Part shown: piece after piece, positions 15,823-63,419 of the stretch
How the letters are laid out: each line of letters starts with the position of its first letter
Position numbering within the stretch: the stretch's first letter is position 1
Assembly (NCBI GenBank): GCA_934089275.1
Contig: CAKOJJ010000001.1
Coordinates: forward strand, 49,918 to 113,917
DNA: 64,000 bases
Reading direction: 5' to 3'
From: an uncultured Bacilli bacterium
Lineage (GTDB): Bacteria > Bacillota_I > Bacilli_A > RF39 > UBA660
Position numbers and translations under genes: made by a program
Notes under the pieces: model-generated
Told to the model about the DNA's origin: nothing
The model's input: only the letters and a program-made list of their open reading frames with translations
The model's database searches: none

Positions 15823-15885
15823 CTTTTTTCTTGAAAAAAAATAATATCTACTCTATAATTAATAATAGAATACGAGGGTGATAAA

Positions 15886-17580: not shown

Positions 17581-17586
17581 AAGGTA

Positions 17587-17615
17587 TTGACTATAAAATA
17601 GATAAAATATATAAT
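17587..17615 (+). promoter_or_regulatory. sigma-A type promoter for second pilin gene
   Basis: Consensus TTGACT-N17-TATAAT. Confidence 0.6.
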
Positions 17616-17641
17616 TAACTTAAGATAGGAAGAGGATATTT

Positions 17642-44468: not shown

Positions 44469-45122
44469 ATGCATAAAGTTATCGCGATAGACGGTTACTC
44501 AGCAAGTGGAAAAGGAACTGTAGCTGATTTGCTTGTCGAAAAACTTGGATATTTAAGAGTTGATTCTGGAAAGTTTTATAGAAGTATCGCGTATATCGGT
44601 TTAAAAGAAAACATTGATTTTACTTCTGATGAAGCAATTATTAAACTAGCCGATAGCATTAATTTTGAGTATAAAGGCAATAGAATGTACGCTAACGGCG
44701 AAGATGTAACTGATAAACTTAAAACTAAAGAAATAGATACTTTAGTTATACGTGTATGCGAGGTTTATGAAGTACGACATATCGTCAATAAAAAAATTCG
44801 TGGTATTCGTGAATTTTATGATATAATAATCGACGGAAGAGACACAACTTCAGCGGTTTTTCCTGATGCAGATGTAAAAGTATATCTAACCGCTTCTTTT
44901 GAAACAAGAGTAAAAAGAAGATATGATGAATACATTAAAGCTGGTAAAAACATTACCATTGAGGAAGTCAGAGAAAACATTAAATTTAGAGATCATTCTG
45001 ATGATACTAGAGAAGAAGGAAGACTTATAATTGTTCCTGATGCTCTTGTAATTGATTCTACAAATTTAACAGCTTCAGAAGTTGTTGATATGATTATAAA
45101 TAGAAAAGAGTGCGAGAAGTAA
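44469..45122 (+). CDS. cmk: cytidylate kinase
   Basis: IAIDGYSASGKGT P-loop and Cmk-like length. Confidence 0.75.
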   Translation: MHKVIAIDGYSASGKGTVADLLVEKLGYLRVDSGKFYRSIAYIGLKENIDFTSDEAIIKLADSINFEYKGNRMYANGEDVTDKLKTKEIDTLVIRVCEVYEVRHIVNKKIRGIREFYDIIIDGRDTTSAVFPDADVKVYLTASFETRVKRRYDEYIKAGKNITIEEVRENIKFRDHSDDTREEGRLIIVPDALVIDSTNLTASEVVDMIINRKECEK

Positions 45123-46879
45123 TGAATTTAAAAGATTTATATATTAATTTTTTTGTAAGCAAAGGACACAAACAAATTCCAAGTGCTCCAGTTGTACCTG
45201 AAAACGATCCATCTGTTTTATTTAATACAGCTGGAATGCAACCACTTATTCCATACTTATTAGGAGAACCTCATCCTTATGGAACACGTCTATGTGATTA
45301 TCAAAAATGTATAAGAACAAACGACCTTGAAAACATTGGTGATACTTATCATCATACATTTTTTGAAATGTTAGGAAACTGGAGTTTAGGAGATTATTTC
45401 AAAGATGAATCTATTTCTTGGAGTTTTGAATTCTTAACAAAAGTTTTAAATATTCCAGTAGAAAGACTAGCAGTAACCGTATTTGCTGGTTCTGAAACAA
45501 TTCCTTTTGATGAAGTAAGCTATAATAAATGGTGCAGTCTTGGAATAAAACCAGAAAGAATTGCTAAAACCGTAGACGATAATTTCTGGATCGCTGGAGA
45601 AACAGGACCATGTGGTGGAGATACTGAAATTTTCTACTTCAGAAGTGAAGATGAAATTCCTGAAGTTTTTGACCCAGAGGACGAACGTTGGGTAGAAATT
45701 TGGAACAACGTTTTCATGCAATATGAAAAACATGAAGACGGTTCAATTACTGAACTTCCTAAAAAGAACGTAGATACTGGAATGGGAGTAGAAAGAGTTA
45801 CATCCATTCTTGAAGGAAAACTTGATAACTATGAATCTTCTATTTGGAGTGATATTATCGAGCTTATTGAAAACATTTCTAATCTTTCTTATAAAGGAAA
45901 TGAAAAATCAATGCGTATAATTGCTGATCACATTCGTTCTTCAGTATTTATTGCTGCTGATCCTGCAGGAATTAAACCAAGTAACACAGATCAAGGTTAC
46001 ATTTTAAGAAGATTAATAAGAAGAGCAATTAGACATGCAAGAAATCTAAATATTGATATCAATTCTAATTGGGAAGAACAAATTGCTTTAAAGATTATTG
46101 ATAAATATGCTAAATATTATGAGGAATTAGCAACAAACAAAGATATTGTATTAGATGTTTTAAAAAACGAAAAACAAAAATTTGCCAAAACATTAGAAAA
46201 AGGTTTAAGAGAATTCGATAAAAAAGTAAGCAATGGATCTAAATCTATCGACGGAGAAACTGCATTCCATTTATTTGATACTTATGGATTTCCACTTGAA
46301 TTAACAATTGAACTTGCAAGTGAACGTGGAATTGAAGTAGATGTTGTTGGATACAATGAATGCTTTAAAGCACACCAAGAGTTATCAAGAGCAGGTTCCA
46401 CAGCTAAATTTAAAGGTGGCCTTGCTGGAAATTCTGAAATTGAAACACGTTATCATACTGCAACACACTTACTTAACGCTGCTTTAAAATTAGTTTTAGG
46501 AAGTGACACTCATCAAAGAGGTTCCAACATAACTGTTGAGAGAATGCGTTTTGACTTTAACTGCGATCACAAGTTAACAGATGAAGAAAAAAAACGTGCT
46601 GAAGATATCGTAAACGAATGGATTAAAGAAGATTTACCAGTAACTGTAGAAAGCATGAGTAAAGATGATGCCATCGCTTCAGGTGCTGAATGTATGTTTA
46701 TCGAAAAATATCCAGATATCGTAACTGTTTATTCAATAGGTGATGTATCAAAAGAATTATGTGGAGGTCCACATGTAAAACATACTGGAGAACTTGGACA
46801 TTTTGTAATCAAAAAAGAAGAAGCATCAAGTCAAGGTATTAGAAGAATTAAAGCCGTTCTTGAAAGTGAGGAAAACTAA
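45122..46879 (+). CDS. alaS: alanine--tRNA ligase, compact form (catalytic + tRNA-recognition + editing domains; no C-Ala domain)
   Basis: FNTAGMQP and HHTFFEMLGNWSLGDYFK class II AlaRS motifs, FHLFDTYGFP, and the editing domain HTATHLL...CGGPHV. Total 585-589 aa. Start overlaps the cmk stop (TAATG). Confidence 0.75.
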   Translation: MNLKDLYINFFVSKGHKQIPSAPVVPENDPSVLFNTAGMQPLIPYLLGEPHPYGTRLCDYQKCIRTNDLENIGDTYHHTFFEMLGNWSLGDYFKDESISWSFEFLTKVLNIPVERLAVTVFAGSETIPFDEVSYNKWCSLGIKPERIAKTVDDNFWIAGETGPCGGDTEIFYFRSEDEIPEVFDPEDERWVEIWNNVFMQYEKHEDGSITELPKKNVDTGMGVERVTSILEGKLDNYESSIWSDIIELIENISNLSYKGNEKSMRIIADHIRSSVFIAADPAGIKPSNTDQGYILRRLIRRAIRHARNLNIDINSNWEEQIALKIIDKYAKYYEELATNKDIVLDVLKNEKQKFAKTLEKGLREFDKKVSNGSKSIDGETAFHLFDTYGFPLELTIELASERGIEVDVVGYNECFKAHQELSRAGSTAKFKGGLAGNSEIETRYHTATHLLNAALKLVLGSDTHQRGSNITVERMRFDFNCDHKLTDEEKKRAEDIVNEWIKEDLPVTVESMSKDDAIASGAECMFIEKYPDIVTVYSIGDVSKELCGGPHVKHTGELGHFVIKKEEASSQGIRRIKAVLESEEN

Positions 46880-47423: not shown

Positions 47424-48443
47424 ATGAAAAAAATTGATGAATGTAGCTATGAAGAACTATTAAAGCATAAAAAAACTAATCAAATTGCAGCAACAACTCT
47501 TACGAGCATTCTATCATTTTTAGTAATCGCATTAAAAAATCCTTTTATTATGCCATCCATTTGGTTTGTTTTAAATTCCTATGATTCTACAAAAAAGAGA
47601 ATTGAAAAAACTATGGCGGAAACTGATGAAGATGTAAAATTGTTATATGACATTTATAAAGAAATTCTAGAAAACACATCCAAAACAATAAGTTCGTTAG
47701 ATGCATCAAATCCACTAGATATATATTCATATTTCTGCTCAATGTTTAATTATGGATGCTTTTCTTATGACTTAAACACTAATCATCCATTGGATATGTC
47801 AGTTCTAAAATCAAGTACCTTTGGTGAAACTCTTATGCTTAATGGTCATGGTGTTTGTCGACATTTAGCTGTATTTTTGCAAAGGTTATACACAAAATTG
47901 GGATACGAAAGTGACACAGCAGTTGGTCACTCAAATAAAATAGACTTAAATGAATTATCTGATTATGTTGAATTTTGTAAAAAGCAAACATCTTTAACTA
48001 GCGAAGAAATCAAGAAAATTCTCATCACCGAACATCTTAATCCAGGAAGATTTGCCAGTAAGAATTATAAAAGACAGCAAAAATTTTCTAATCATGTAAT
48101 CACTAGAGTTAACTGTGATGGAACAACTTTGATTACAGATCCAATGAACAGTTGTATTATGTGCTCAGTAATAGAAGATATTTTTTATTGCCCTGCATCA
48201 GAAGAAGGTTTAGTTTTCGTGCTAGATCGTGACTTTTCAAGTAAATATAATGAGTTTTGGGGTATACAAACGATTAGAGAATATGAATGTCCTGATCCAG
48301 TTCAAATGCTTTTCTCTTATTTTGCCTCAAGTATTAAAGCAAAACAAGCTAATGACGTTTTTGAAAAATTCCACAAAGATAACCTTCCAGCATTAGAAGA
48401 AGCTGAAAATTTAACTCAAAAAGTATTACAAAAGAAATATTAA
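47424..48443 (+). CDS. transglutaminase-like cysteine peptidase superfamily protein, membrane-anchored
   Basis: N-terminal TM and a NGHGVCRHLAVFL segment typical of the transglutaminase-like catalytic Cys. Confidence 0.45.
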   Translation: MKKIDECSYEELLKHKKTNQIAATTLTSILSFLVIALKNPFIMPSIWFVLNSYDSTKKRIEKTMAETDEDVKLLYDIYKEILENTSKTISSLDASNPLDIYSYFCSMFNYGCFSYDLNTNHPLDMSVLKSSTFGETLMLNGHGVCRHLAVFLQRLYTKLGYESDTAVGHSNKIDLNELSDYVEFCKKQTSLTSEEIKKILITEHLNPGRFASKNYKRQQKFSNHVITRVNCDGTTLITDPMNSCIMCSVIEDIFYCPASEEGLVFVLDRDFSSKYNEFWGIQTIREYECPDPVQMLFSYFASSIKAKQANDVFEKFHKDNLPALEEAENLTQKVLQKKY

Positions 48444-48514
48444 AATTTTTAGAATATTTCTTTTATTATGCAAAATATTTTTGTATAATTGTTTTAATAG
48501 GTGAGTTGTATTAT

Positions 48515-49648
48515 ATGAAAAAAAGAATAATTATAGTTCTAATTGCTATATGTTTAATTTTAAATGCCGTTTTACTTCTGTCGATCAGCAAGAAAAAAGA
48601 TGTTACTGTTGATGTAACACTAACAAGTAAAAAAGTAAAGAAAATACAAGGAACATTTTCATCATCTCTTGATAAGCTAGAAGTATATTATTTAGCGTTA
48701 AATGGAAAAAAGACAATTGATTTTATTTTTGATTATCCTGATAGTTTTAATAAATCTGTTAATTTAACGAGTGATGACGAAAATATTGTCAAAGTAGAAG
48801 ATGGAACTTTATATGGAGTTGGTGTTGGAAAAACCGGCGTTACTGCAACACTTGCTGATGGGAATTCCAAAAAATATGAAATACTAGTAACTGATTTAAT
48901 AGTTCCACCAACTTTAAATAAAAACAAACCTTACTTACCATGTGAAAGATATACAGAAGAAGAAGCAGAATTATTAGATAAAATATTAGAATCACGTGTA
49001 AAAGAAATGGGAGAAGGATCCCGTGGAGGAGTTTTAGCAGCTGCTAGGTTTTTAACTTTAGAGTTTCCTTATACAATAGGTTATTTCAATGAAAATGGTC
49101 GCCTTAATGGTCATGGATATCGTCCGTATATTGATGGAGAAGGAAGATATTACCACAAGGGATTATATTTAAGTAAAAGTAAGTACAAAGATATTGTAAA
49201 AAGTACTAAAACAGGTCCGAAAATGTGGGGTTGTAAACTATATGATAAATTTGTAAGTAGATATAAATCAAACGGTTTTACTTGTTCAGGATTTGTTACT
49301 TGGGCAATGTATAACGGAGGATTTGAAACTGGTGATGTTGGTGCTGGTGATTATAAACAATTTAACGATGATCTTTCTGATTTAGGACCACATCAACAAA
49401 TTACTGAAGAATATATGAAAAACGGCAACTACAAAGTTGGTGATTTCATTGCAAGAAACGGACACGCCGCTTTAATTATTGGAATTTCTGATACTACCAT
49501 TTATACAGCTGAATCTTTACCTCCAAAATTAAAAGTTTACACTTATGAAAGATATAAAGGAATAGTAAAAGACACAAATTTAACATATGTTATTGAAATG
49601 AGTAGTATTTATCCAAACGGAGATGGAATAACTACCGATATGTGGTAA
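48515..49648 (+). CDS. secreted protein with Big_2 Ig-like domain and NlpC/P60-CHAP-like cysteine peptidase domain
   Basis: Signal/TM. SDDENIVKVEDGTLYGVGVGKTGVTATLADG matches Big_2. C-terminal FTCSGFV...GHAALI Cys/His pair. Confidence 0.5.
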   Translation: MKKRIIIVLIAICLILNAVLLLSISKKKDVTVDVTLTSKKVKKIQGTFSSSLDKLEVYYLALNGKKTIDFIFDYPDSFNKSVNLTSDDENIVKVEDGTLYGVGVGKTGVTATLADGNSKKYEILVTDLIVPPTLNKNKPYLPCERYTEEEAELLDKILESRVKEMGEGSRGGVLAAARFLTLEFPYTIGYFNENGRLNGHGYRPYIDGEGRYYHKGLYLSKSKYKDIVKSTKTGPKMWGCKLYDKFVSRYKSNGFTCSGFVTWAMYNGGFETGDVGAGDYKQFNDDLSDLGPHQQITEEYMKNGNYKVGDFIARNGHAALIIGISDTTIYTAESLPPKLKVYTYERYKGIVKDTNLTYVIEMSSIYPNGDGITTDMW

Positions 49649-49704
49649 AAAGCACTTTTAATAAAGTGTTTTTTTGTGCTATACTTTTTATAGTAGGTGA
49701 TACG

Positions 49705-50946
49705 ATGAACATTTTAGATATTATAACAAGAAAGAAAAACGGTTTAAGTTTAAGCTACGACGAGCTTTTCTTTGCATTTAACGGATATTTAAATAAAGAG
49801 ATACCAGATTATCAAATGAGTGCACTTTTAATGGCAATTGTAATAAATGGTATGAACCTAACAGAAACACTTGCTCTTACAGATATATTTTTAAAAAGTG
49901 GAGATGAACTTCATTTAGGTGAGAAGATTGAAAACTTGGTAGACAAACACTCAACGGGTGGTATAGGGGACACAACTACTATAATCATCGGTCCAATGTG
50001 TGCCGCAATAGGCATGAAAATGGCTAAAATGAGTGGAAGAGGTCTTGGAATTACAGGTGGAACAATCGACAAACTTGAAAGTATTCCAGGATTCAATGTT
50101 TCATTAACAGAAGAAGAATTCATTAAACAAGTAGAAGAAACTGGTTTTGCTGTTGTTTCTCAAACAAGAAATTTAACACCTCTTGATAAAGTTATATATG
50201 CTTTAAGAGATGTTACTGGAACAACTGAATCAATTCCTTTAATTGCATCAAGTATTATGTCTAAAAAACTTGCTTTAGGTGCAAAAAACATTTTAATAGA
50301 TGTTAAAGTCGGAAGTGGAGCTTTGATGAAAACTCGTGAAGACGCCGAAAAATTAAGTAAATACTTAGTAGAAATTGGCGAAGCATATAATAGAAATGTT
50401 CGAACAATCATCGGAGATATGAGTGCACCCCTTTCCTATGCAATTGGAAACTCTTTGGAGATATGTGAAGCAATGAATGTTTTAAATGGTAAAAAATGTC
50501 CTTTATATGATGCATGTATTGAAATTGTTGCTAACCTATATGACATGACTTTTTCTTCAGGATTAGAGGAAGGATACAAACAAGCTAAATATGCAATTGA
50601 ATCTAAAAGAGCACTAAACAAATTTTACGAATTTGTTCATGCACAAGGTGGAAGTCTAAGAAATGTTCATGTTGCCGACAACAAAATAAAAGTTCGTTCT
50701 AAAAAAAGCGGAATTGTTACTAAAATAGATGCTTATGGAGCTGGTGAACTAGCTGCTAAACTTGGTGCATCAAAGAAAACTTTAGAAGATACGATTGATT
50801 ACACTGTTGGTATTATGTTAAACAAGTACATTGGAGATCATGTTGACAAAGATGAGGTGCTATTTACAATCTATACAAATGATCCTGATATCGAATTTAA
50901 TGAATCAGATTTTGCATTTATTGAAGTAAATGATGGAATTGAATAA
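49705..50946 (+). CDS. pdp: pyrimidine-nucleoside (thymidine) phosphorylase
   Basis: DKHSTGGIGDTTT and MSGRGLGITGGTIDKLESIPG motifs. Start moved to the ATG at 49705, which follows GGTGA. Confidence 0.85.
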   Translation: MNILDIITRKKNGLSLSYDELFFAFNGYLNKEIPDYQMSALLMAIVINGMNLTETLALTDIFLKSGDELHLGEKIENLVDKHSTGGIGDTTTIIIGPMCAAIGMKMAKMSGRGLGITGGTIDKLESIPGFNVSLTEEEFIKQVEETGFAVVSQTRNLTPLDKVIYALRDVTGTTESIPLIASSIMSKKLALGAKNILIDVKVGSGALMKTREDAEKLSKYLVEIGEAYNRNVRTIIGDMSAPLSYAIGNSLEICEAMNVLNGKKCPLYDACIEIVANLYDMTFSSGLEEGYKQAKYAIESKRALNKFYEFVHAQGGSLRNVHVADNKIKVRSKKSGIVTKIDAYGAGELAAKLGASKKTLEDTIDYTVGIMLNKYIGDHVDKDEVLFTIYTNDPDIEFNESDFAFIEVNDGIE

Positions 50947-50988
50947 ATTATATGATATAATTAATAATAGAATAAGAGGTTGGTTATA

Positions 50989-52755
50989 ATGTTTGGAAAA
51001 ATACGTTATATAGATGATATTACAGCAGTCGTTGATATTAATAAAGATAACATGGTAGTTCCTAATTTAATGAATTTGCATGTTGTCTTTGAAAACGATA
51101 CAGATAAACTACTTGGAGAAGTTAAAAAAGTTGACACAGAAACAGTTCATATTGATTTATTAGGTCAATTTGTAGAAAATCGTTTTATTGCTGGTACAAT
51201 AAAAAAGCCAACATTGGATAGTAAAGTTCGTGTTATAAACGATGATGAATTAAATATTATTCTTGGAAAAGACGACGAAAAGAGTTTATATTTAGGCCAT
51301 TCAGCAATTTATCCTGAGAAAAATGTTTATATTGATATCAACCAATTCTTTTCAAACCATGCTGCTATATTTGGTAACACTGGTTCTGGTAAAAGTTGCT
51401 CTGTTGCAAGAATCGTTCAAAATATATTTTTAAATAAGCAATTTTTATCATATAATGCTAATTTATTTATATTTGACGCATATGGTGAGTATAAAAACGC
51501 TTTTAAGGTATTAAATCAAATAAATCCAAATTATCAATACAAATTCATAACTTCAAACCCAACAGATCCAGATGATGTTCAGTTAAACATTCCTGTATTT
51601 TTATTAACAATTGATGATATATGTTTACTTTTACAAGCAGATAATCATCATCAATACACGATAGTGGAAAGAATGTTAAAACTAGCAAAATTATTTTCAA
51701 AAGATGATGAAGAAACTAAAAAATTAAAAAATCATTTAATTGCTAAAGCTATTATGTCTGTTTTATTTTCAAATCAAAATGCAGCTGGTAAGAAAAACGA
51801 TATATTTACAATTATAAATGATTGTTCTACACCTGAATTTAACGTTAACACCGATATTCAAGGTATTGGCTATACTCGTAAATTCAGTGAATGTTTTGGA
51901 ATAGATCGTAATGGTGAATTTGGAGAGTCCGTTCTTATAAATGAGTACTTGCTTAAATTTATTGATGATGAATTAGAAAGTAGAATAGAGGTGCCAGCCG
52001 ATGCTTTCTATACATTAGATGATCTTGAAAGAGCTTTGTCATTTACTTTAATTGGTGATGGTTTCTTAGGTAATAGAATTATGCAAGATAATGCAGTTAT
52101 AATGCAAGTAAGATTGCATTCTCTAAACAATTCATCAAATCGAAAGTTTTTCTCTTTTAAAGAATATATAACAATTGATAACTATATTTCATCATTAATA
52201 GTTCATAATAATAGACGTAGTCAAATCATCAATATTAATCTAGAAGATGTTGATGATAATTTAGCAAAAACGATTGTTAAAATTTTTTCTAAAATGATTT
52301 TTGATTTTGCAAAAAAGAGAAGAGTTCGTGCTGCTATTCCATTCCATTTGTTTATAGAAGAGGCACATAGATATGTTGTAAATGACAATGACCATTTTCT
52401 TTTAGGTTATAACATCTTTGAACGTATCGCTAAAGAAGGAAGAAAATATGGAGTAATGCTTGATTTAGTAAGTCAACGTCCCGTAGAAATATCAGAAACA
52501 GTTATAGCTCAAACAAGCAATTTCTGTATATTAAAAATGACTCATCCTAGAGATCTTGAATACATTAATAAAATGCTTCCAAATATAAGTGGTGATATTA
52601 TCGAAAAACTTACAAGTCTACAAAGTGGAACAATGGTAGCATTTGGTTCAGCATTTAAAATTCCTGTAATTGTAAAAATGGATATGCCAAATCCAGCACC
52701 ATATTCTTCCAACTGTGATGTTTTATTCCGTTGGAAACCAATTCAAAAGCAATAA
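50989..52755 (+). CDS. HerA-like (DUF87) P-loop ATPase
   Basis: N-terminal HAS-barrel-like region, Walker A GNTGSGKS, Walker B LFIEEAHRY, and a conserved VSQRP segment. Confidence 0.6.
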   Translation: MFGKIRYIDDITAVVDINKDNMVVPNLMNLHVVFENDTDKLLGEVKKVDTETVHIDLLGQFVENRFIAGTIKKPTLDSKVRVINDDELNIILGKDDEKSLYLGHSAIYPEKNVYIDINQFFSNHAAIFGNTGSGKSCSVARIVQNIFLNKQFLSYNANLFIFDAYGEYKNAFKVLNQINPNYQYKFITSNPTDPDDVQLNIPVFLLTIDDICLLLQADNHHQYTIVERMLKLAKLFSKDDEETKKLKNHLIAKAIMSVLFSNQNAAGKKNDIFTIINDCSTPEFNVNTDIQGIGYTRKFSECFGIDRNGEFGESVLINEYLLKFIDDELESRIEVPADAFYTLDDLERALSFTLIGDGFLGNRIMQDNAVIMQVRLHSLNNSSNRKFFSFKEYITIDNYISSLIVHNNRRSQIININLEDVDDNLAKTIVKIFSKMIFDFAKKRRVRAAIPFHLFIEEAHRYVVNDNDHFLLGYNIFERIAKEGRKYGVMLDLVSQRPVEISETVIAQTSNFCILKMTHPRDLEYINKMLPNISGDIIEKLTSLQSGTMVAFGSAFKIPVIVKMDMPNPAPYSSNCDVLFRWKPIQKQ

Positions 52756-52770
52756 AATATTGCTTTTTTC
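52747..52770 (+). terminator. rho-independent terminator
   Basis: aagcaata/tattgctt hairpin followed by a T6 run. Confidence 0.65.
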
Positions 52771-52809
52771 TTTTTGTTTTAATATAATACAGCAAAGGTG
52801 GGAATATTT

Positions 52810-53190
52810 ATGCAAAAAGAAGCAATAGTAGAAAAGTTTGCTCTAGCATGTCAAAATAATATGGGTGGTATATTTGATATCATTAGAGATGAAGGTTTTG
52901 TCTTTTTAAGAAGCGATAACAAGACGATACCTAAAATGGCTGTGTTTTATCAAAACGGTATTCGTAATAAAATAATAAACGTTTCTGCATATTTACCATA
53001 CGAAATAAGCATTTTATTGTTAGAATATATGATTACATATTACTTAAGACACCAAGAGGATGATATTTATATAACGATAGACGACTTTTATACATTTGAT
53101 CCAGAAATAACAGAAATTGTTGATGCAATAAATGAAAAATTAGAAAACAAACTTGGTAAATTATTAACCGAAACATGTAAATATATGTAA
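52810..53190 (+). CDS. hypothetical protein
   Basis: 126-aa ORF preceded by the RBS AAAGGTGGG and a -10 TATAAT. Confidence 0.45.
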   Translation: MQKEAIVEKFALACQNNMGGIFDIIRDEGFVFLRSDNKTIPKMAVFYQNGIRNKIINVSAYLPYEISILLLEYMITYYLRHQEDDIYITIDDFYTFDPEITEIVDAINEKLENKLGKLLTETCKYM

Positions 53191-54183: not shown

Positions 54184-56460
54184 ATGGAAAAAGCGTGGAT
54201 AGACTATAAAACAGATGAAGAAACTTTTAAAACAATAATGCAATATGAAGAAGAGTTTGTCAGGACTTATATGAAAAAGAAGTATGGCAGAAATTATGAT
54301 GCCACTGCAAATAAAACACCGATGTTAAAAAAAGATGAAGAAAGATTTGCACTAGCATCTCTTTTAGTTCAACTAGATATATTATGTGTAGACAAATTAA
54401 AATTAAAAAATATGGATTTACAAGCATTCTTTAGTAAACCTGAGAATCTAATGATTAGAAAATTATGTTTAGCCACTGGCTTAGAAGTTAGTAGTATAGA
54501 AAATATAATCAATAAATTTCCAAAAGAAACTCGTACTGTACTAATTTATTTATTTGGAATAAACCGAAAACAAATAAAATTTGAAGACGCTGAAAGTATA
54601 TTTAATCTATCAGAAGACGAAATATACAAAATTTTACTAACAGGAGTTAGAAGATTAAAATATGATATTAAATTAGTTCAAGGAAGTAAAAATGCTGGAA
54701 AAATACCGAGTATGATCATAATAGATCTTGAGAAAAAAGGATATTCTAGATCAGAATTAATAAAAGCATTAAACTTATATGACGATAGAACTAAATGCAC
54801 ACTACAAAAGTATTACGGATATAATTATTCCTCTGCAAAGTCTCCTATAACGCCTGTTATGCCTGGAGACGAAGAAATCATCAATAATGTTTTAACAGGA
54901 GAAAATAATATTGACGTACAAGTACAAAAACTAAGAGAAAAACAAGCAAAAGTTATTGAACGAGCAAAAATAAAAAAAGCTGAAGAAATTATTCCAGAAA
55001 GACCTTTCAATATAATAAGGTTTTATAAAAAACAAGGTTATAGTACTTTAGAAATTACAACAGCCTATCATTCATTAAGTAATGAAGAACGCACTCTAAT
55101 AGAAAAACAATTTGATAAAAATTATAACGAAATAAAAGATGCTAAACTAACCGAAGAGGAAAAAGAAACAATTTTTAATCTTACAAGAAGCGAAACTCAA
55201 GGAATAGGAAAAGCTTTAAAGAATAAATATAAAAAATCAGGTTCTCAAAAAACTACGGTTGATGAAAAACCTATAGAGAATAAACCAGCAAAGGCCCCAG
55301 CAAAACCAAAAACCGAAACTAAGAAAATAGCAAAGAAACCAAAAGAGGATAAGGCAAATAAACCAGAAAAAGTGCTTCCATCAAAACTTGATGAGGTTAA
55401 AAATAAGAAGGCACAAGCCAAGAAATATAAATCCATTAACGAATGTAAAACTTTGAATGAATTCTACAAACAATTTGGCTTTGACGATGAAGATCTAGAA
55501 AGCGTTTATAAAGTCTTACCACGTGGTGCACTAAGACACTTTGAGAATTACATAGACGTTCAATATGTAGATGGTAATAATCATGTGTTCAAAATCAAAA
55601 AATTCGTTCCTACAAGTGATGTAACTGCAAGACAATATTTAAAATACACTATATTAATACCTTTAACTAAGCATAGAGTTGCCAAAGGAAAGAATTTAGA
55701 TATGGAAAAAATTCCAACGTATGTTTTGAATAAACTTAAGAACTGTAAACATCAACAAAAAATTATATTTAGTGAGTATAAGACCTTAAATGAGTATTAT
55801 GAAGCCCGTGGATTAGACAGCGCAACATTAAAATATGTGTATTCAAAAACAAGAACAGGAAAAGATTATTTTGATGAATTTATCGATATAGTTAAAACCG
55901 ATAATGGCAGATGTATATTTAAAATCAAAAAACCGATAGACCGAAATAACACATCAGTTTTTAAATATTTTACTCAAATATTACCACAACAAATAACTAG
56001 GAATCACGTCAAATTTTTATCAAGCGAAACTCAAATTGTTGAAGAAAGAGAAACTTTACCTATAAATGACCGTGATACTTCTTTAAATACAACTGTTGAT
56101 AGTCAAACGACCAATATAGAATCATCAATTGACTTAAAAATTTATATGGGTGAATACATAACTTCAGTAAAAGAAACTAATATTATTACACGAGAATTAA
56201 TAATGAGTCTTGGATTGCCTAAACGTTATGAGTATTTTCTTTTAAATGAATTTGTTGCAAATAAAAACAATAATATAAGTTTGGATGAAGAGGCAGAGAT
56301 TTTAAATCTAGATGCAATTGAATTATGCAAAATATTAATAGAAGCAATTGAACTATTAAAAGCAAAAATAAATAGCATACTAATGATTAATAATTTCGAA
56401 ACCCATCAAACTCCAAAAACCGATGATGGAGAAACAAACCTAAAAAAAGCGTTGAATTAA
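54184..56460 (+). CDS. large Lys-rich multi-HTH protein, paralog A (sigma-70-like N-terminal module + repeats)
   Basis: Start at MEKAWIDYK, with the RBS GAGGT. N-terminus homologous to the proteins at 59636 and 61949. The C-terminal 60 aa is nearly identical to that of 61949. Contains internal ...TLNEYY...FKIKK repeats. Confidence 0.6.
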   Translation: MEKAWIDYKTDEETFKTIMQYEEEFVRTYMKKKYGRNYDATANKTPMLKKDEERFALASLLVQLDILCVDKLKLKNMDLQAFFSKPENLMIRKLCLATGLEVSSIENIINKFPKETRTVLIYLFGINRKQIKFEDAESIFNLSEDEIYKILLTGVRRLKYDIKLVQGSKNAGKIPSMIIIDLEKKGYSRSELIKALNLYDDRTKCTLQKYYGYNYSSAKSPITPVMPGDEEIINNVLTGENNIDVQVQKLREKQAKVIERAKIKKAEEIIPERPFNIIRFYKKQGYSTLEITTAYHSLSNEERTLIEKQFDKNYNEIKDAKLTEEEKETIFNLTRSETQGIGKALKNKYKKSGSQKTTVDEKPIENKPAKAPAKPKTETKKIAKKPKEDKANKPEKVLPSKLDEVKNKKAQAKKYKSINECKTLNEFYKQFGFDDEDLESVYKVLPRGALRHFENYIDVQYVDGNNHVFKIKKFVPTSDVTARQYLKYTILIPLTKHRVAKGKNLDMEKIPTYVLNKLKNCKHQQKIIFSEYKTLNEYYEARGLDSATLKYVYSKTRTGKDYFDEFIDIVKTDNGRCIFKIKKPIDRNNTSVFKYFTQILPQQITRNHVKFLSSETQIVEERETLPINDRDTSLNTTVDSQTTNIESSIDLKIYMGEYITSVKETNIITRELIMSLGLPKRYEYFLLNEFVANKNNNISLDEEAEILNLDAIELCKILIEAIELLKAKINSILMINNFETHQTPKTDDGETNLKKALN

Positions 56461-56475
56461 ATTTCAACGTTTTTA
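56450..56475. terminator. bidirectional terminator embedded in last codons of paralog A
   Basis: cgttgaa/ttcaacg hairpin over the final codons (KKALN*), followed by a T5 run. Also lies at the 3' end of gpsA on the minus strand. Confidence 0.6.
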
Positions 56476-57447
56476 TTTGCTCATAAGGAAGTTTACTAAA
56501 ATATTTGGATCAGCTCCATTTATTACTATGTCATAAATTATATCAATTACAGGCATTTCCACCTTTTTCTTACGAAGTAGGGCATATATACTATTAAGTG
56601 TGTAATAACCTTCCACAGTGGTTGTATTTATGTATTCTAAAGCTTTTTTAGTATCTTTCTTACCAAGTAATACTCCATATGTATAATTACGGGACTTTTC
56701 ACTTGTAGCTGTTAGTAATAAATCTCCAACACCAGCAAAAGAAAGAATAGTCTTTTTATTACCATCAAGATTATCGATAAGCTCTTTTATATCATGTAGA
56801 GATTCTGTTATCAGAAAACTTCTTGTTGATTCTTTATAACCTAAGCCATCTAAAATACCAGCAGCAATTGCAATGACATTTTTTATAGAACCACAAATTT
56901 CTATACCAACAACATCATTTGTATCTCTTAATTTTATATTCGTGTTTTTATATGCTTCATGAACTAATTTAGCTGTGCCTTTATTTTTAGTAGCTAAAGC
57001 TAAACCAACAGGTTCTAAGTAGGCTATGTCTATCGCGAAAGATGGACCAGATATAACCCCAAGTTTGTTTGTTGGAATAATGTTTTGAAATATTTCATCA
57101 ATAAATAAACATGTCTTTTGTTCGATACCTTTAGAACCAATAACAAAATGCATATTTCTAGTTATATATTCTTTCATATTTTCACATACACTCGAAACAT
57201 ATTTAGCAGCTACCATTATAAATACTAAATCAGTGTTCTTTAAGACTTCTTCATAAGAAGTGGAAAACGAAATCTTATCAGGTATTGTTATACCACCTAA
57301 ATCTTTAAAACTCTTTCGTGACTTTTCAATTCTATTTAAAGATTCGTCACTTTCAGACCACATTTTTATATTATTTCCTTCATTTTGAGCAAGAGCAACA
57401 GCCATGGCAATACCATAAACTCCTGTTCCAATTATTGCTATATTCAT
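56473..57447 (-). CDS. gpsA: NAD(P)H-dependent glycerol-3-phosphate dehydrogenase
   Basis: MNIAIIGTGVYG Rossmann motif and GpsA-like length. Confidence 0.8.
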   Translation of the reverse strand: MNIAIIGTGVYGIAMAVALAQNEGNNIKMWSESDESLNRIEKSRKSFKDLGGITIPDKISFSTSYEEVLKNTDLVFIMVAAKYVSSVCENMKEYITRNMHFVIGSKGIEQKTCLFIDEIFQNIIPTNKLGVISGPSFAIDIAYLEPVGLALATKNKGTAKLVHEAYKNTNIKLRDTNDVVGIEICGSIKNVIAIAAGILDGLGYKESTRSFLITESLHDIKELIDNLDGNKKTILSFAGVGDLLLTATSEKSRNYTYGVLLGKKDTKKALEYINTTTVEGYYTLNSIYALLRKKKVEMPVIDIIYDIVINGADPNILVNFLMSK

Positions 57448-58637
57448 TTTTTCATCTCCTCATGTATATTTACTAAATTCTTTTCATATTTATTATTTCT
57501 AGGTTTAAAATATTTTCTATTCTTAATTTCAGTTGGAAGATATTGTTGATCAACCCACGAATTTTTATAATCGTGTGGATATTTATAATCCTTAGAATTG
57601 GTTTTTAACCAAGACGGAACACGTCCATTAACACCATTGGAAATATCATTAATTGCCTCATCTAAAGCTAGATGAGCCGAATTAGATTTTGGTGATAAAG
57701 CCATTTCTGTAACTATTGTACCTAAAGGAATACGTGCTTCAGGCAAACCAACAAGATTAGCTGCTTCAATCGCAGCCATAACTTTGGGACCAATACCAGG
57801 GTTAGCAAGACCAATATCTTCATAAGCTATAACACTCAATCTTCTAAATATTATGTCCAAATCCCCGATAACTATTAATCTTCCTAAATAGTAAAGAGCA
57901 GCATCCACATCACTTCCACGAATACTTTTTTGTAAAGCGCTTATTAAGTCATAGTGTGCATCTCCATCTTGATCTCCGTCTAAGATAACTTTAGGATTAA
58001 TATTTTGAATTAAATCAGTTGTAATAATTCCGTCTTTAGTAGAGTAGTAAGCAACCTCTAATAAACTTAGAGATGCACGAACATCTCCATTTACTAGTGA
58101 AGCAATATATTCAAGTGTTTCATCGCTTACATTTATTTTATCCAATTTTGTACAAGCTCTTTTTAAACAAACTACAATATCTTCTTTACTAACTGGTTTA
58201 AGTTCAAATATTTGAACACGGCTACGTATGGCTGGATTTATTTTAAAATAAGGATTTGATGTTGTAAGACCAATCAAGGTAATAAGTCCATTTTCTAAGT
58301 AGGGAAGAAGTATATCTTGTTTATCTTTATTCATACGGTGTATTTCATCAACAATTAAAACAAGGGAACCATACATTTTAGCTTCTTCAATAGCTACATC
58401 AAAATCGCTTTTATTATTAATTACTGCATTAAGCATACGATATTTAATTCCAAGCTCATTCACTATGGCATAAGCAAGCGTAGTTTTGCCTGTTCCTGGA
58501 GGACCATATAGTATCATCGAAAATATATGTTTATTATTAACTAAATTTCTTATAATTTTATCTTCACCAACCAAATGTCTTTGCCCGACAACATCATCTA
58601 AGCATTTTGGTCTTAAAGCATTAGCAAGAAGTTCCAT
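57444..58637 (-). CDS. rarA: replication-associated recombination protein A
   Basis: LYGPPGTGKTTLA Walker A and MgsA/RarA C-terminal domains. Start at MELLANALRPK, which follows GGTGA. Confidence 0.85.
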   Translation of the reverse strand: MELLANALRPKCLDDVVGQRHLVGEDKIIRNLVNNKHIFSMILYGPPGTGKTTLAYAIVNELGIKYRMLNAVINNKSDFDVAIEEAKMYGSLVLIVDEIHRMNKDKQDILLPYLENGLITLIGLTTSNPYFKINPAIRSRVQIFELKPVSKEDIVVCLKRACTKLDKINVSDETLEYIASLVNGDVRASLSLLEVAYYSTKDGIITTDLIQNINPKVILDGDQDGDAHYDLISALQKSIRGSDVDAALYYLGRLIVIGDLDIIFRRLSVIAYEDIGLANPGIGPKVMAAIEAANLVGLPEARIPLGTIVTEMALSPKSNSAHLALDEAINDISNGVNGRVPSWLKTNSKDYKYPHDYKNSWVDQQYLPTEIKNRKYFKPRNNKYEKNLVNIHEEMKK

Positions 58638-58712
58638 ATATATCACCATAAATAATTATATCATAAGGCCTTATCTATTTTGTAAATTTTTCAAAAATTT
58701 GTTATTATTAAT

Positions 58713-59597
58713 ATGGTGAAACGTATGAATGATATCTATATAAGTGACTTTTTATCATATTTAGAAGTAGAAGCAAATTATTCAGAAAATACAATTAGGT
58801 CATATGAAAATGATTTAAATAAATTTGAAGAATATTATAAAAAGAAAGATTTACTAAAAATAACATCTAAAGATATAGATAAATTCATTCAAACTTTAAA
58901 CGATTTAGCACCTTCAACTGTAAGTCATAATATTTCTAGTTTAAAAACTTTTTATTCATACTTTTTAAAACTTGGACGTATAAGTGCCAATCCAACTGAT
59001 GGAATAAAATCACCTAAATTAGGAATTCATTTGCCAACATATTTAACTATTGATGAAATAAATAAACTTTTGGACATTGAAGTAACTGATGCTTTTTCCT
59101 CAAGAAACAAAGCTATACTTGAGCTTATGTATGCAACAGGCTTAAGAATAAGCGAGGTTATAACTCTAGAATTCAAAAACATTGATTATGAGGAATGCAT
59201 TGTAAGAGTTATGGGGAAAGGTTCCAAAGAGCGAATCGTCCCTATAAACAATTATGCAATAAAATATTTAAAAGATTATATCGACAACTATAGACCTGAA
59301 CTTGTAAAAAACGAAATAAATAATTACATATTTTTAAATAACCACGGACGTATGTTAACAAGACAAGGAATATTTAAGATGATTAAAAATTATGCTTCTA
59401 TAAAAGGTATAAAAAAAACAATCGGACCCCATACTCTTAGACATACTTTTGCAACTCATTTATTAGAAAACGGAGCAGATCTAAGAGTAATACAAGAACT
59501 TCTTGGCCATTCTGATATCTCGACAACTCAAATATATACTCATTTAACTAACGAAGCCTTGCACAACGAGTATAAAAAATACTTTCCAAGGGATTAA
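58713..59597 (+). CDS. site-specific tyrosine recombinase, XerC/XerD family
   Basis: Catalytic R...HTLRHTFATHLLENGADLRVIQELLGHSDISTTQIYTHL with tyrosine; 294 aa. Confidence 0.8.
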   Translation: MVKRMNDIYISDFLSYLEVEANYSENTIRSYENDLNKFEEYYKKKDLLKITSKDIDKFIQTLNDLAPSTVSHNISSLKTFYSYFLKLGRISANPTDGIKSPKLGIHLPTYLTIDEINKLLDIEVTDAFSSRNKAILELMYATGLRISEVITLEFKNIDYEECIVRVMGKGSKERIVPINNYAIKYLKDYIDNYRPELVKNEINNYIFLNNHGRMLTRQGIFKMIKNYASIKGIKKTIGPHTLRHTFATHLLENGADLRVIQELLGHSDISTTQIYTHLTNEALHNEYKKYFPRD

Positions 59598-59635
59598 AGT
59601 TATGTTATAATAGCGAACCAAAGGCGATGTGAATT

Positions 59636-61933
59636 ATGGAAAGAATAAAAAGAATAAATCGAATGTTTAATGGAACAGATCAAGAATTAAGGACAATATA
59701 TAAATATGAAACTGAATTAGTAAGAGATCAATTGGAAAATCAATTTTCTGATTTTTTTACTAGAAAGAAAAGAATTCATTTATGTGAATATGAAAAACTT
59801 ATGTTTCCTATCGTTCAAGAAATCATGAATATAGACCTTATTTGTATCCGCAAATTAGAAGACGAATCTAACATTGAATCATTTTTACGTGGAACAAACA
59901 TTATAGAACGTATTAAATTTGCATATGACATAGATAATGAAACAATGGAAAAGAATTTTAATAGGATTCCCAATAAAGCTAAAAAAGCTATTGAGTTGCT
60001 ATTTAATTTAACTGATGAAAACTTAACTGTTGAAGAAATTCTTGAAGTATTAGATACAGATTATGATGGTCTTAATAGAATAGTTAAAAATAACTTACGT
60101 TTCTTATTTTTTAATTCCCCAAAGGAAGCACAAACAAATAAATCTCAAAAAAGTGTTTTTGTTATACCAAGATATTTTTTCAAATATTTTGAAAAAATGG
60201 GATATTTTTATGACGATATCTATTTTGCAGTTGAATCTTGTACAGATAGTATAAAAAATACATTAAAGAAAATATATGGTGAATTTTATAACGATGTAAA
60301 AAATATCAAAGCAACTTTAACAAATGAAGATATTCAAAATTTAAAAAATGTATTTATTAGTCCAGATAAATGCCTTATACATTCTATCAAAGAAATAAAC
60401 AAATCAATAAAAATACCAAGCTATACAGGATCAATAAGACATTTTGACTTAATGAATTATTATATTAGTATAGGTTATTCAAAAGAAATAGTAGTTGAAG
60501 TTTTTAAAGAATTATCTCCATTAAATAAACAAATACTAGATTTATATTTTCAATCAAATCACACATTAAAACCTCATCAAGTTTTGAAATTTGGACAAAT
60601 GCTTAGAGCAGGTGAAGCAAGTAAAGTATATAATTTGCTATTCAATCCAAATGAAGGTATTCAACAAGCTTTAAAAGACAAATCAAATATCCACAGTTCT
60701 ACATGTTGTAGTGACACTGGAATGATAATAGATGTTTATCAATTCTATGAAAATCTTGGTTATGAAAGAGAAACTGTAAAAAAGGCATTAAAACAAATCG
60801 ATGTTGACACATTAAAAGCAATCTTGAAATTTTACGATGAAAACCTTCTATTGAGAGAATCTTATTCACAAAACGCTCAATTTCAAAAAATTATTTCATC
60901 AACATTAATAAATCCAACTTCCTATATCGCAAAAAATATCTTAGATGATAAAATTTTACCTAACTACAATGATAATATAAATGAAAAAGTTTATACAAAT
61001 GGATATATTCATTTAGGTATACGAGGAATACCAGCAAACTATGTAAATCACGCAATTTCTTTATTAGATCCTTGCGATAGAGCCGTATTAAATAAATATT
61101 ACACTAGCAAATTTCACTTACGTGACGAGATTGCCATTAACGAACAAGAACTAGATGCATTATTTGATAAACTAATATATTTAGCTATTAACTACAATGA
61201 AATAATAAAAAAGAGTAGAGAAGAAAAATGTCAAAAGGCACAAGATGTACTTATTAACATAGGTTGTTCTAAAGACGCCGTTATGTATGTAATCAATGAT
61301 TTGGATACTTCAACAATTGAAAAAATAATATCTTCAGTAAAACCTAAAAAGAATACATCTAGTGGAACAGGGTTATTGTTAACACAATTCATTATTAAAA
61401 GCGAATATGTTGCTAAAATTTGCAATTTAAAAGATTTTATAATATCTCTAGGATACACAGACAAAGAATTTACTGAATTTTTAGATGTTATTAATAAGTA
61501 TTCAAGAAGATTTGAATTATCTGCTTATTTTGATTTAGATACATTTGAACTAAAAAGTGAATATCGTTTTGATAAAGAAACTCTAGAGGATTTACGCCAT
61601 CATTTAGATTACTTCTTATCAATATTCATTCACCATAAAGAAAATCAATCAAATATCGCTAATATTGATAATGTATATTATTCAATATTAAACGATGTTA
61701 GTGTCAAAACTAAAAACTGCATAATAGACAATAAAGGATTTAAAGCAAGTGTTTATCAAAAATTTCCTAGTAGAAATATAAACTATTATGTGTTATTATC
61801 AAATCGTATATCATCTAATTCGTTTGATGGACTTACTGAACTATTAATCTATAGAGCATTATTTAATAATGCATATAAAGAGTACATAGGAATCGAAACA
61901 GAACTAAAGAAAACCTTAGTTGATAACAAATAA
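59636..61933 (+). CDS. large multi-HTH protein, paralog B
   Basis: N-terminal about 160 aa homologous to A and C (IDLICIRKLE...LLFNLTDENLTVEEILEVL). At least six roughly 45-aa GY(S/T)..E repeats. Confidence 0.55.
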   Translation: MERIKRINRMFNGTDQELRTIYKYETELVRDQLENQFSDFFTRKKRIHLCEYEKLMFPIVQEIMNIDLICIRKLEDESNIESFLRGTNIIERIKFAYDIDNETMEKNFNRIPNKAKKAIELLFNLTDENLTVEEILEVLDTDYDGLNRIVKNNLRFLFFNSPKEAQTNKSQKSVFVIPRYFFKYFEKMGYFYDDIYFAVESCTDSIKNTLKKIYGEFYNDVKNIKATLTNEDIQNLKNVFISPDKCLIHSIKEINKSIKIPSYTGSIRHFDLMNYYISIGYSKEIVVEVFKELSPLNKQILDLYFQSNHTLKPHQVLKFGQMLRAGEASKVYNLLFNPNEGIQQALKDKSNIHSSTCCSDTGMIIDVYQFYENLGYERETVKKALKQIDVDTLKAILKFYDENLLLRESYSQNAQFQKIISSTLINPTSYIAKNILDDKILPNYNDNINEKVYTNGYIHLGIRGIPANYVNHAISLLDPCDRAVLNKYYTSKFHLRDEIAINEQELDALFDKLIYLAINYNEIIKKSREEKCQKAQDVLINIGCSKDAVMYVINDLDTSTIEKIISSVKPKKNTSSGTGLLLTQFIIKSEYVAKICNLKDFIISLGYTDKEFTEFLDVINKYSRRFELSAYFDLDTFELKSEYRFDKETLEDLRHHLDYFLSIFIHHKENQSNIANIDNVYYSILNDVSVKTKNCIIDNKGFKASVYQKFPSRNINYYVLLSNRISSNSFDGLTELLIYRALFNNAYKEYIGIETELKKTLVDNK

Positions 61934-61948
61934 ATATAGAGGTGAATT

Positions 61949-63403
61949 ATGGAGAAAGCTTGGATTGATTATAAAACAGATGAAGAAACATTTAAAACAA
62001 TAGTAAATTATGAAGAAGACTTTGTTTATGACATGATGAGAAAGAAATATGGAAAAGATTTTGATGGAATAAACGTAAAAAGTTCGATTAAAAGAAGCGA
62101 GATTTATAAATATAATCTTGCTGATGATTTAATAAAACTAGATGTATTATGTGCTGAAAAACTTAAAGCAAAAGGTAAAAATATAGCTGGTTTTTTTAGA
62201 AACAGTACTGACTTAATGTTGAGAAAATTATGCACAGCTTATGATCTAAACTCAACAGAATTGGACGGGGTCATTACCTGTATTTCTTCAGAATATCGTG
62301 ATATTTTTGTATACGCTTCTGGAATTAATAGAAAAAAAGTCAAAATGCCAGTAATTGTATCAATGTTTAATACTACCACTGATGATGCTTACATGAAAAT
62401 AGCATTTGCGTTGCGTGAAATAGAAAAAATTGTAAAAGACAGAAAAAACAGACTAACAGAGAGTTCTCAAAAGAAAACAACTATTCCAAATTTATCACAA
62501 AAACACTACGGTCAAAATCTCGATAAGATTAAATCTCCAATAAGTCCAGCACCAAAAGAAGCCGAAAAAGCAATCTTAAATGTTCAACACGGATCCAACA
62601 GTGGCATTGAAAAAATAAAACAAACTGAAACTTCTGAAATTCAAGAAAAACAAGAAAATCCACAAATTGAAGTGTCTAAAACTAATCCAAAAGAAAATCC
62701 AAGTAGCAATGGAGATGGTAAAATGCATAAAAGAAAAAACGTGCCAATAGATAAACACCAAACATTAAATGAATATTATCAAGCACGTGGTTTTAGTAAA
62801 GAAGCCTTAGAAAATTTATATAGTAAATTAACAGCTCGTGGAAAAGCATATTTTGATAAATATATTGAAGTTATTGAAAACGATGACAATACTCACACTT
62901 TTAAAATCAAAAAGGCAATTCCTAAATATGATAAAGACTCACGTGATTATTTTACAAAAAGCGCCTGTGCAGTCTTAAGCAAATTTTCAAATACTGAAGC
63001 AGTATCTACAGAAATAGAAACCATAAAACCAACAAAAGAAAATGATAATAAACCATCTATAGATTTAAAGAATAATGTAACTGCTTACCTAAGCGCATTA
63101 AAACTTTCAAAGATTATAACTAGAGAATTAATTATAAACCTTCAATTACCTAAAAAATATGAGTATTTTCTTTTAACTGAATTTGATACAAATGGTAATA
63201 ATGAATTCAGTTTGGAAGAAGAAGCAGAATTTTTAAATATGAGTGTTGAAGAGTTATGTAAACATTTAATTGAATCAATTGAATATTTAAAAACTCAATT
63301 AAATGATAAGTTATCAATGGATAAAAGTAGAGTAGGAAAGTTATTAAACAGCAATACTCAACCAGATGACGGAGAAGTAGACATGAAAAAAACGTTGAAT
63401 TAA
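61949..63403 (+). CDS. large multi-HTH protein, paralog C
   Basis: MEKAWIDYKTDEETFKTI N-terminus and ITRELI...EYFLL...EELCKHLIESIEYLK C-terminus, both shared with A. RBS GAGGTG. Confidence 0.6.
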   Translation: MEKAWIDYKTDEETFKTIVNYEEDFVYDMMRKKYGKDFDGINVKSSIKRSEIYKYNLADDLIKLDVLCAEKLKAKGKNIAGFFRNSTDLMLRKLCTAYDLNSTELDGVITCISSEYRDIFVYASGINRKKVKMPVIVSMFNTTTDDAYMKIAFALREIEKIVKDRKNRLTESSQKKTTIPNLSQKHYGQNLDKIKSPISPAPKEAEKAILNVQHGSNSGIEKIKQTETSEIQEKQENPQIEVSKTNPKENPSSNGDGKMHKRKNVPIDKHQTLNEYYQARGFSKEALENLYSKLTARGKAYFDKYIEVIENDDNTHTFKIKKAIPKYDKDSRDYFTKSACAVLSKFSNTEAVSTEIETIKPTKENDNKPSIDLKNNVTAYLSALKLSKIITRELIINLQLPKKYEYFLLTEFDTNGNNEFSLEEEAEFLNMSVEELCKHLIESIEYLKTQLNDKLSMDKSRVGKLLNSNTQPDDGEVDMKKTLN

Positions 63404-63419
63404 TCATCAACGTTTTTTT
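63391..63419. terminator. bidirectional terminator embedded in last codons of paralog C
   Basis: 8-bp perfect stem aacgttga/tcaacgtt flanked by an A7 run and a T7 run. Confidence 0.75.

Follow-up and report, generated by a model that had tools for sequence, protein, structure and literature searches.

Region 4 of the sigma-70 factors (sigma-4; Sigma70_r4, PF04545) is usually found in single copy, where it reads the −35 element and docks on the flap of RNA polymerase. It is both a DNA reader and a protein-docking domain, with the beta-flap, activators and anti-sigmas as its protein partners. Region 2 (sigma-2) binds the beta′ clamp helices and both recognises and melts the −10 element. Extracytoplasmic function (ECF) sigmas with C-terminal extensions, of the ECF41/42 and SigJ type, possess a sigma-2 that is detectable in sequence, and PhyR joins a receiver domain to a single sigma-2/sigma-4-like module. 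Here we describe three genes, A, B and C, in 64,000 nucleotides (nt) of DNA from an uncultured Bacilli bacterium (GCA_934089275.1, contig CAKOJJ010000001.1, positions 49,918 to 113,917; this whole stretch is the window). Their products share an N-terminal head, in which a sigma-4 homologue follows a helical domain of its own kind, and after the head come repeats that also appear to derive from sigma-4. We consider this structural and evolutionary description of the family highly probable. The domain superfamily is known; what is new is its arrangement in repeats of this kind, the N-terminal domain that precedes them and the conserved, probable operon with xerD.

Profiles of the head were made from alignments of 14, then 26 diverse heads. 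Searched against all PDB sequences they matched almost solely sigma factors, with head positions ~95–160 on region 4 (E 1.8e-5, 4.5e-6). When the head was compared by hhalign with RpoD and the ECF sigma of the window plus P0152, a metagenome protein discussed below, a match with 94% probability and E 1e-7 was obtained over region 4 only. These profile matches indicate that head residues ~96–170 are homologous to sigma-70 region 4. A first-pass annotation of the window had noted a resemblance of the N-terminal module to regions 2 and 4; the second of these is real homology.

The resemblance to region 2 did not hold up. In two rounds of profile hidden Markov model (HMM) search with the head, no second matched stretch that would cover residues 1–95 was found in any PDB sigma chain. 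A Foldseek search of the A head model against the PDB found nothing significant (best E 1.2). Hhalign against the sigma-2 of RpoD, the ECF sigma, P0152 and a further metagenome protein, P0148, gave a probability of 2% (E 0.025), and the register of this non-significant alignment is the one seen by eye in the first-pass annotation. Singly, 0/26 heads match any Pfam sigma model, Sigma70_r2 included, and the head has no equivalent of the aromatic-rich region 2.3/2.4. With the profile HMM, Foldseek and hhalign all giving no support, a sigma-2 in the head was rejected. The head is better described as a unique 95-amino-acid (aa) helical domain that is predicted to pack against the sigma-4 homologue. 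In E. coli sigma-70 the −35-contacting positions are R584, E585, R586 and R588. In these columns the heads mostly carry E/T, D/E, E/D and Y/N, with ≤1 Arg (n = 26).

Two types of repeat, the GYS and TLNEYY units, were examined with alignments of 32 diverse GYS units (from A, B and relatives) and 26 TLNEYY units. TLNEYY units occur twice in A and once in C (E 1e-24 to 1e-30). B contains four clear GYS units, one partial and one doubtful; the period is ~88 aa, with a conserved core of ~40–45 aa. The earlier count of at least six units of ~45 aa in B was correct in that repeats exist, and both number and period needed revision. By hhalign the GYS units matched the repeats of poly-sigma-4 metagenome proteins (96.7%, E 3.6e-10) over 65 columns, the whole length of region 4, and the profile of those repeats matched SigA region 4 at E 1.1e-7. 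TLNEYY units matched GYS units over the first 36 columns (93.9%, E 1.6e-7). Because GYS units match the poly-sigma-4 repeats and TLNEYY units match GYS units, these profile comparisons place both in one family that comes from an extended sigma-4 domain. The first-pass annotation had recognised both repeat types; it missed their relatedness and their origin from region 4.

The helix-turn-helix (HTH) half is the least conserved part of the repeats. An AlphaFold2 (AF2) model of a TLNEYY unit, with a predicted local distance difference test score (pLDDT) of 91, consists of three helices, a beta-hairpin and a long helix. In the architecture that we propose, the head of ~95-aa helical domain plus sigma-4 would be followed by a variable string of ~88–110-aa units that arose by serial duplication of the extended sigma-4 domain. 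The HTH half would have decayed in GYS units, and in TLNEYY units a beta-hairpin and long helix would stand in its place. A and C would end in an acidic tail, probably sigma-4-like. The HTH-like tail that the first-pass annotation had assigned to A and C is indeed common to both, at 48% identity over 104 aa. Its HMM matches the A head sigma-4 at E 0.0012, and its profile found no match in the PDB. The tail is probably another sigma-4 copy.

The three open reading frames (ORFs) were confirmed in the ORF list of the window; C starts 15 nt past the B stop codon. For A the start at 54184 was taken and not that at 54172, as GAGGT lies 6 nt upstream and the homologues start MEKAW. BLASTP aligned A with C in two parts, the head (E 6e-45) and the last 240 aa (E 2e-43). 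It aligned A with B at 21% identity over 349 aa (E 1e-14), and B with C at E 1e-6. By these alignments A, B and C are true paralogues with a common head of ~170 aa, in agreement with the shared N-terminal module proposed earlier. The description of the family as Lys-rich applies to A and C (13.6% and 13.2% Lys) and not to B (9.5%), the background of the window ORFs being 9.7%. Isoelectric points (pI) are 9.1 for A, 8.2 for C and 6.4 for B. Among separate modules, the B head region 4 has a pI of 4.9 and the A and C tails about 4.7–4.8, and the A linker is 33% Lys with a net charge of +11. Because no hydrophobic segments were found in A, B or C, they are judged to be soluble, cytoplasmic proteins. 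No enzymatic domain was detectable in them.

Scans of A, B and C against Pfam, NCBIfam, PHROGs and PADLOC gave no family match, and neither Sigma70_r4 nor Sigma70_r4_2 (PF08281) was found by Pfam at E up to 1. A single-sequence phmmer search of the PDB gave no match for B and only noise for A. Word-indexed searches gave 86 relatives for A and 47 for B, every one an unnamed metagenome protein. The head profile was also run exhaustively with HMMER against 1.84 billion cluster representatives and matched no more than 73 clusters. About 25 of the 73 carry the whole head; the others are long proteins matched 5–12 times by the region-4 part alone. A scan of genome contigs with a single protein found one locus only. 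The searches point to an undescribed family that occurs only in one clade of uncultured low-GC gut Bacilli, in line with the lineage-restricted, uncharacterised family that the first-pass annotation had proposed, and the profile searches that it named as a check assigned no known family.

The nearest described relative of the repeats, sigma region 4, is like the family by homology of the head domain and the repeats. The family differs in having no sigma-2/sigma-3 before region 4, acidic residues at the −35 contacts and up to 14 copies per protein, and its single members fall below the Pfam threshold. The closest relatives overall are the poly-sigma-4 proteins, unnamed metagenome proteins such as P0148 (1457 aa), P0152 (925 aa), P0156 (1027 aa) and P0163 (1145 aa). 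P0148 matches Pfam Sigma70_r4 with a whole-protein E of 1.7e-63, and in P0152 a full sigma factor (r2, r3, r4) precedes eight additional region-4-like copies. Like the family they have tandem units, here of ~80 aa, which start F..F.GY(S/T)KEQI and are homologous to the GYS units, and they are long, soluble, encoded by AT-rich DNA and sometimes found in paralogue clusters. Unlike the family, their repeats keep a recognisable Sigma70_r4 HTH, P0152 and P0148 have a real sigma-2, and both the 95-aa N-domain and the xerD context are lacking; they are themselves uncharacterised. Full-text literature searches found no description of poly-sigma-4 proteins, and a large homologue search with the short alignment of their repeat (A4) gave no matches. 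P0148 has up to ~13 repeats and adjoins ylbD, ylbE and ylbF. On another metagenome contig (L013:133-11303) four or five consecutive genes encode proteins of 355–1145 aa, three of them with weak or faint Sigma70_r4 matches, and further poly-sigma-4 regions lie at L011:915-3692 and L007:425-4798.

The ECF sigmas with C-terminal extensions resemble the family in having a compact sigma-4-containing N-terminal module and then a long extension. They differ in that no sigma-2 is detected in the family, whose extension itself appears to consist of sigma-4 copies. For function PhyR is the favoured analogy, as a sigma-derived domain used for protein binding and not for promoter recognition. The likeness would be one of function only; the family has no receiver domain and has many repeats. 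Matches to UBA-like three-helix domains and to YlxM/UPF0122 were below the curated thresholds (for the UBA-family Pfam models 16–17 bits against cutoffs of 20–23.5, with 2/32 units at E ~0.006–0.01), and the profile–profile link to sigma-4 is far stronger.

Identical proteins were also found on metagenome contigs of up to 249 kb, and a relative with a 40%-identical A protein in a metagenome-assembled genome (MAG) from the Hadza gut (NCBI 'uncultured Bacilli bacterium'). The head-bearing proteins are of two types. The B type has a stable length of 706–819 aa with 3–5 GYS units. In the close clade the variable type combines two GYS units with 1–7 TLNEYY units and the tail; in more distant lineages it has 8–14 GYS units and reaches 1,899 aa. 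In four other contigs the order is rarA (minus strand), xerD, B type, variable type, with gaps of 5–40 nt among the last three genes, and the proteins are only ~40% identical across lineages. A ZIP transporter gene is directly next in 3/4 contigs, and on those that are long enough elongation factor P follows after a few more genes. The recombinase matches TIGR02225, the XerD equivalog, with 346.4 bits (cutoff 329.6), which identifies it as an ordinary housekeeping XerD. Xer-family membership had been stated correctly in the first-pass annotation; in addition the enzyme proves to lead a conserved syntenic block. The order xerD-B-C is a conserved chromosomal arrangement, probably co-transcribed. 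In one contig a reverse-transcriptase gene (RVT_1, 353 aa; L005:16362-17423) replaces the ZIP transporter gene just downstream of the xerD/B-type/C-type block. The B orthologue of the Hadza MAG (L004:16953-19225) was called as two ORFs of 408 and 351 aa, which may reflect a frameshift or pseudogene, or an assembly error.

Since the more distant locus L005 has no gene between ThiF and gpsA, where A lies in the window, synteny identifies A as a later duplicate of a C-type gene. In 62 orthologues with heads >90% identical, the TLNEYY units number five in most and 2–4 in about a dozen. This suggests in-frame gain and loss of units within species, or else collapse in the metagenome assemblies. The TLNEYY unit of these orthologues (P0005–P0071; lengths 671, 864, ~975 and ~1085 aa) is ~111 aa.

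A and C also share nucleotide sequence. The 20-nt 5′ and 19-nt 3′ identical stretches reported earlier were each found exactly twice in the window, with none expected by chance. Each is part of a longer similar segment, one of 87 nt at 85% identity with the GAGGT ribosome-binding site in it and one of 254 nt at 70%. In the proteins the two stretches correspond to the invariant motifs YKTDEET and YEYFLL. A third similar segment (58 nt at 79%) includes the terminator. Both A and C have a predicted terminator whose 5′ arm is made up of the final sense codons and whose loop contains the stop codon, with T5 and T7 tracts after the two hairpins. The claim of terminators built into last codons stands for these two genes (−13 kcal/mol each) and fails for B, whose last codons contain none; the B–C junction has no hairpin or terminator. 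Because the A orthologue of the Hadza MAG (L004), at 40% protein identity, has the same ACGTTGA/TCAACGT hairpin over its last codons, it is reasonable to suppose, as was proposed earlier, that the gene end was duplicated together with its terminator. The first 32 residues are 78% identical between A and C (window 54184-54280 and 61949-62045) and only 69% between A and its own orthologue P0004. Here WIDYKTDEETFKTI is found in A, C and close orthologues, and WIDF in both gene types of other species. Gene conversion may have acted on the extreme 5′ ends of A and C.

Because sigma-4 docks proteins and its DNA-reading residues have been lost here, protein binding to the transcription machinery is favoured. 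The sigma-4-derived modules would contact the RNA polymerase beta-flap or sigma-4-binding regulators, and the Lys-rich linker of A could add non-specific contact with nucleic acid. The proteins would then serve transcription or the nucleoid as accessory factors. On balance we lean towards a sigma-4-repeat family acting as a multivalent scaffold as the best explanation of the whole. Its specific form, a scaffold associated with RNA polymerase or the transcription machinery, is inferred and put forward tentatively. Several points weigh against the scaffold. The sigma-4 homology of heads and GYS units appears to be visible only at the profile level, as Pfam Sigma70_r4 matches 0/26 single heads and 0/32 single GYS units even at E 0.01. 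The A/C tail aligned only weakly with the head sigma-4, at a probability of 29% (E 5.8e-4). A chromosome-associated role would suit the xerD operon link and A's basic linker no less well. The acidic modules (B head, A/C tails) argue against DNA binding and do not identify a partner. The scaffold role is itself inferred from sequence and models.

The alternative that survives best, doubtful as we hold it to be, is that A, B and C are nucleoid-associated or chromosome-segregation proteins. Weak HTH-like modules and basic linkers would act with XerD, and perhaps RarA, in dimer resolution or chromosome organisation. The tight xerD, B-type, C-type arrangement conserved across divergent lineages suits such a role, as do the many HTH-derived modules, the basic A and C proteins and the strongly charged A linker. 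However, the DNA-contacting recognition-helix positions are acidic, B is neutral to acidic, the tails have a pI of 4.7, and it is the HTH half that the repeats conserve least. In an added part of this alternative the proteins would functionally replace scpA-scpB, the gene pair found after xerD in lactobacilli and streptococci. No SMC_ScpA or SMC_ScpB match was found in B or C by Pfam at E up to 1, and gene neighbourhood alone is weak evidence. Replacement of ScpA/ScpB was rejected for want of sequence support.

We think it unlikely that the proteins are mimics of the transcription machinery, in which sigma-4 arrays without promoter recognition would cluster or sequester the beta-flap, activators or phage anti-sigmas on the chromosome, from within a housekeeping operon with xerD. 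If true, such global control of transcription or of the nucleoid has no counterpart seen in model bacteria.

It is very unlikely that A, B and C are true, divergent alternative sigma factors, with a minimal sigma-2 plus sigma-4 head as in ECF sigmas and long regulatory C-terminal extensions. Sigma-4 is rightly placed for this after a ~95-aa helical domain, the related P0152 has real Sigma70_r2, r3 and r4 before its 8 repeats, and the weak, non-significant hhalign puts EEFVRTYMKKKYG on region 2.1 and the invariant D65 on the 'FD' of region 2.2. Yet because sigma-2 went undetected by all three methods, the −35-contact arginines are replaced by acidic residues and the genome has its own RpoD (dnaG-rpoD operon) and ECF sigma, both encoded in the window, the three proteins do not appear to be sigma factors. 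The missing region 2.3/2.4 and the 0/26 heads with a sigma Pfam match point the same way.

A role as decoys or sponges, in which sigma-4 look-alikes titrate phage anti-sigmas (AsiA or G1 ORF67 type) or host regulators by PhyR-like mimicry, is highly improbable. It would explain why the sigma-4 fold is kept and the DNA-contact residues are lost. It would also suit the fast-diverging repeats (2–5 TLNEYY copies among the orthologues with nearly identical heads) and the clusters of poly-sigma-4 paralogues on some contigs of other metagenomes. But the genes lie in a stable housekeeping operon and not a defence island, PADLOC gave no match, no partner is known, and the variation in repeat number may partly be an assembly artefact. 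Phage origin was likewise rejected, with no PHROG relatives and none in IMG/VR, the latter by a pattern-based scan of limited sensitivity.

Hardly credible is a mobile or rearranging cassette whose recombinase shuffles or inverts gene parts through the shared A/C segments: A and C do flank a tyrosine recombinase, share the identical stretches and hint at gene conversion, but the recombinase is the XerD equivalog, gene order is kept across ~40%-identical lineages, A and C are direct and not inverted with 70–85% nucleotide identity at conserved ends only, the identical stretches encode invariant motifs, the flanking genes are housekeeping, and viral/PHROG matches are absent. A mobile element or shufflon was ruled out by XerD identity, by synteny in four other contigs and by the lack of PHROG, PADLOC and IMG/VR relatives. 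The link of the shared segments to rearrangement, raised in the first-pass annotation, is dropped with it.

Under the scaffold reading, a family of proteins of up to 1,899 aa that seems to be built almost wholly of decayed sigma-4 copies would mean that this module can be reused as a repeat scaffold. The gene pair is held beside xerD across a whole clade of uncultured gut bacteria. Binding to RNA polymerase or to partners of sigma-4 would make the family a new kind of global regulator or decoy, and binding to DNA would make it a new kind of nucleoid protein. In both cases the domain structure of three large hypothetical proteins has been defined, and attention is drawn to a broader set of poly-sigma-4 proteins that lie unannotated in metagenomes.

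Table. Genes, domains, repeat units and terminators of the A, B and C locus (window coordinates)
Feature	Position	Strand	Remarks
Gene A	54184..56460	+	758 aa; A/C-type sigma-4-repeat protein
A head N-domain, aa 1–95	54184..54468	+	Family-specific helical domain; AF2 pLDDT 89
A head sigma-70 region-4-like domain, aa 96–170	54469..54693	+	
A GYS unit 1, aa 173–262	54700..54969	+	Degenerate extended sigma-4 repeat
A GYS unit 2, aa 272–360	54997..55263	+	
A basic K/A/P-rich linker, aa 361–420	55264..55443	+	33% Lys, net +11
A TLNEYY unit 1, aa 421–510	55444..55713	+	
A TLNEYY unit 2, aa 532–618	55777..56037	+	
A acidic tail, aa 651–735	56134..56388	+	Probably sigma-4-like
Predicted bidirectional intrinsic terminator between A and gpsA	56445..56474	.	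5′ arm formed by last A codons (A-L-N-stop); −13 kcal/mol, z −4.8
gpsA, glycerol-3-phosphate dehydrogenase	56473..57447	-	Neighbour
rarA/mgsA, AAA+ recombination factor	57444..58649	-	Neighbour
xerD, housekeeping tyrosine recombinase	58713..59597	+	Leads conserved xerD-B-C arrangement; TIGR02225, synteny
Gene B	59636..61933	+	765 aa; B-type; head, 4 clear + 1–2 degenerate GYS units
B head, aa 1–170	59636..60145	+	N-domain + acidic sigma-4-like domain
B GYS units 1–3, aa 177–264, 268–355, 363–449	60164..60985	+	E about 1e-19 to 1e-20 each
B partial GYS unit, aa 470–531	61043..61231	+	E 4e-4, HMM positions 20–81 only
B GYS unit, aa 594–681	61415..61681	+	E 6e-13
Gene C	61949..63403	+	484 aa; head, GYS-unit remnant, 1 TLNEYY unit, tail
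C head, aa 1–170	61949..62458	+	
C TLNEYY unit, aa 268–351	62750..63001	+	
C acidic tail, aa 371–456	63059..63316	+	
Predicted intrinsic terminator after C	63386..63419	+	5′ arm formed by last C codons (K-K-T-L-N-stop); −13 kcal/mol, z −4.6

A and gpsA are convergent. The GC content is 26–30% throughout the window, and long ORFs read through in the standard bacterial code. The window genes are Firmicute-like housekeeping genes: FTHFS, holA, an RNase HII-family gene, a gyrA/parC-type topoisomerase subunit, ftsW, rnf, frr and mnmA, together with dnaG-rpoD-trmK, lepA, yqeY, yqfD, ybeY, era, recO, cmk, alaS and mscL.

Several other features of the window were recorded. Upstream of A, a HerA-like ATPase (50980-52755) matches the PADLOC HerA model over its full length with 359 bits and contains DUF87. 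It belongs to a block (47424-53190) in which two no-family proteins (339 and 380 aa) lie further upstream, a pyrimidine-nucleoside phosphorylase gene lies between these and the ATPase, and a 130-aa protein of unknown type follows the ATPase. Because this block is syntenic in related contigs, it may be core and not a defence island. The alanyl-tRNA synthetase (45110-46879) is only 589 aa (585 aa in the source-contig gene call); the bacterial enzyme is usually nearer 870 aa, and the window copy seems to be missing the C-terminal part that normally follows the second additional domain. A 332-aa ORF with an HTH_38 domain, a domain of IS30-family transposases, lies on the minus strand (24576-25574) amid plus-strand housekeeping genes. 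Three consecutive ORFs at 14542-18160 (426, 564 and 172 aa) have no Pfam match at E 1e-8, and the sigma-4-repeat HMMs did not match them.

The ECF-type sigma of the window (154 aa) is followed by an ORF with an M23-peptidase domain (1440-2075; the two genes span 976-2075). The start codon of this ORF overlaps the sigma stop codon by the latter's last base, and the two genes could encode a sigma/partner pair. Rfam gave one match in the window, a minus-strand tRNA (8072-8144). The plus-strand holA-like ORF (8078-9166) is listed with a start that falls inside this tRNA, and so it probably begins further downstream than listed.

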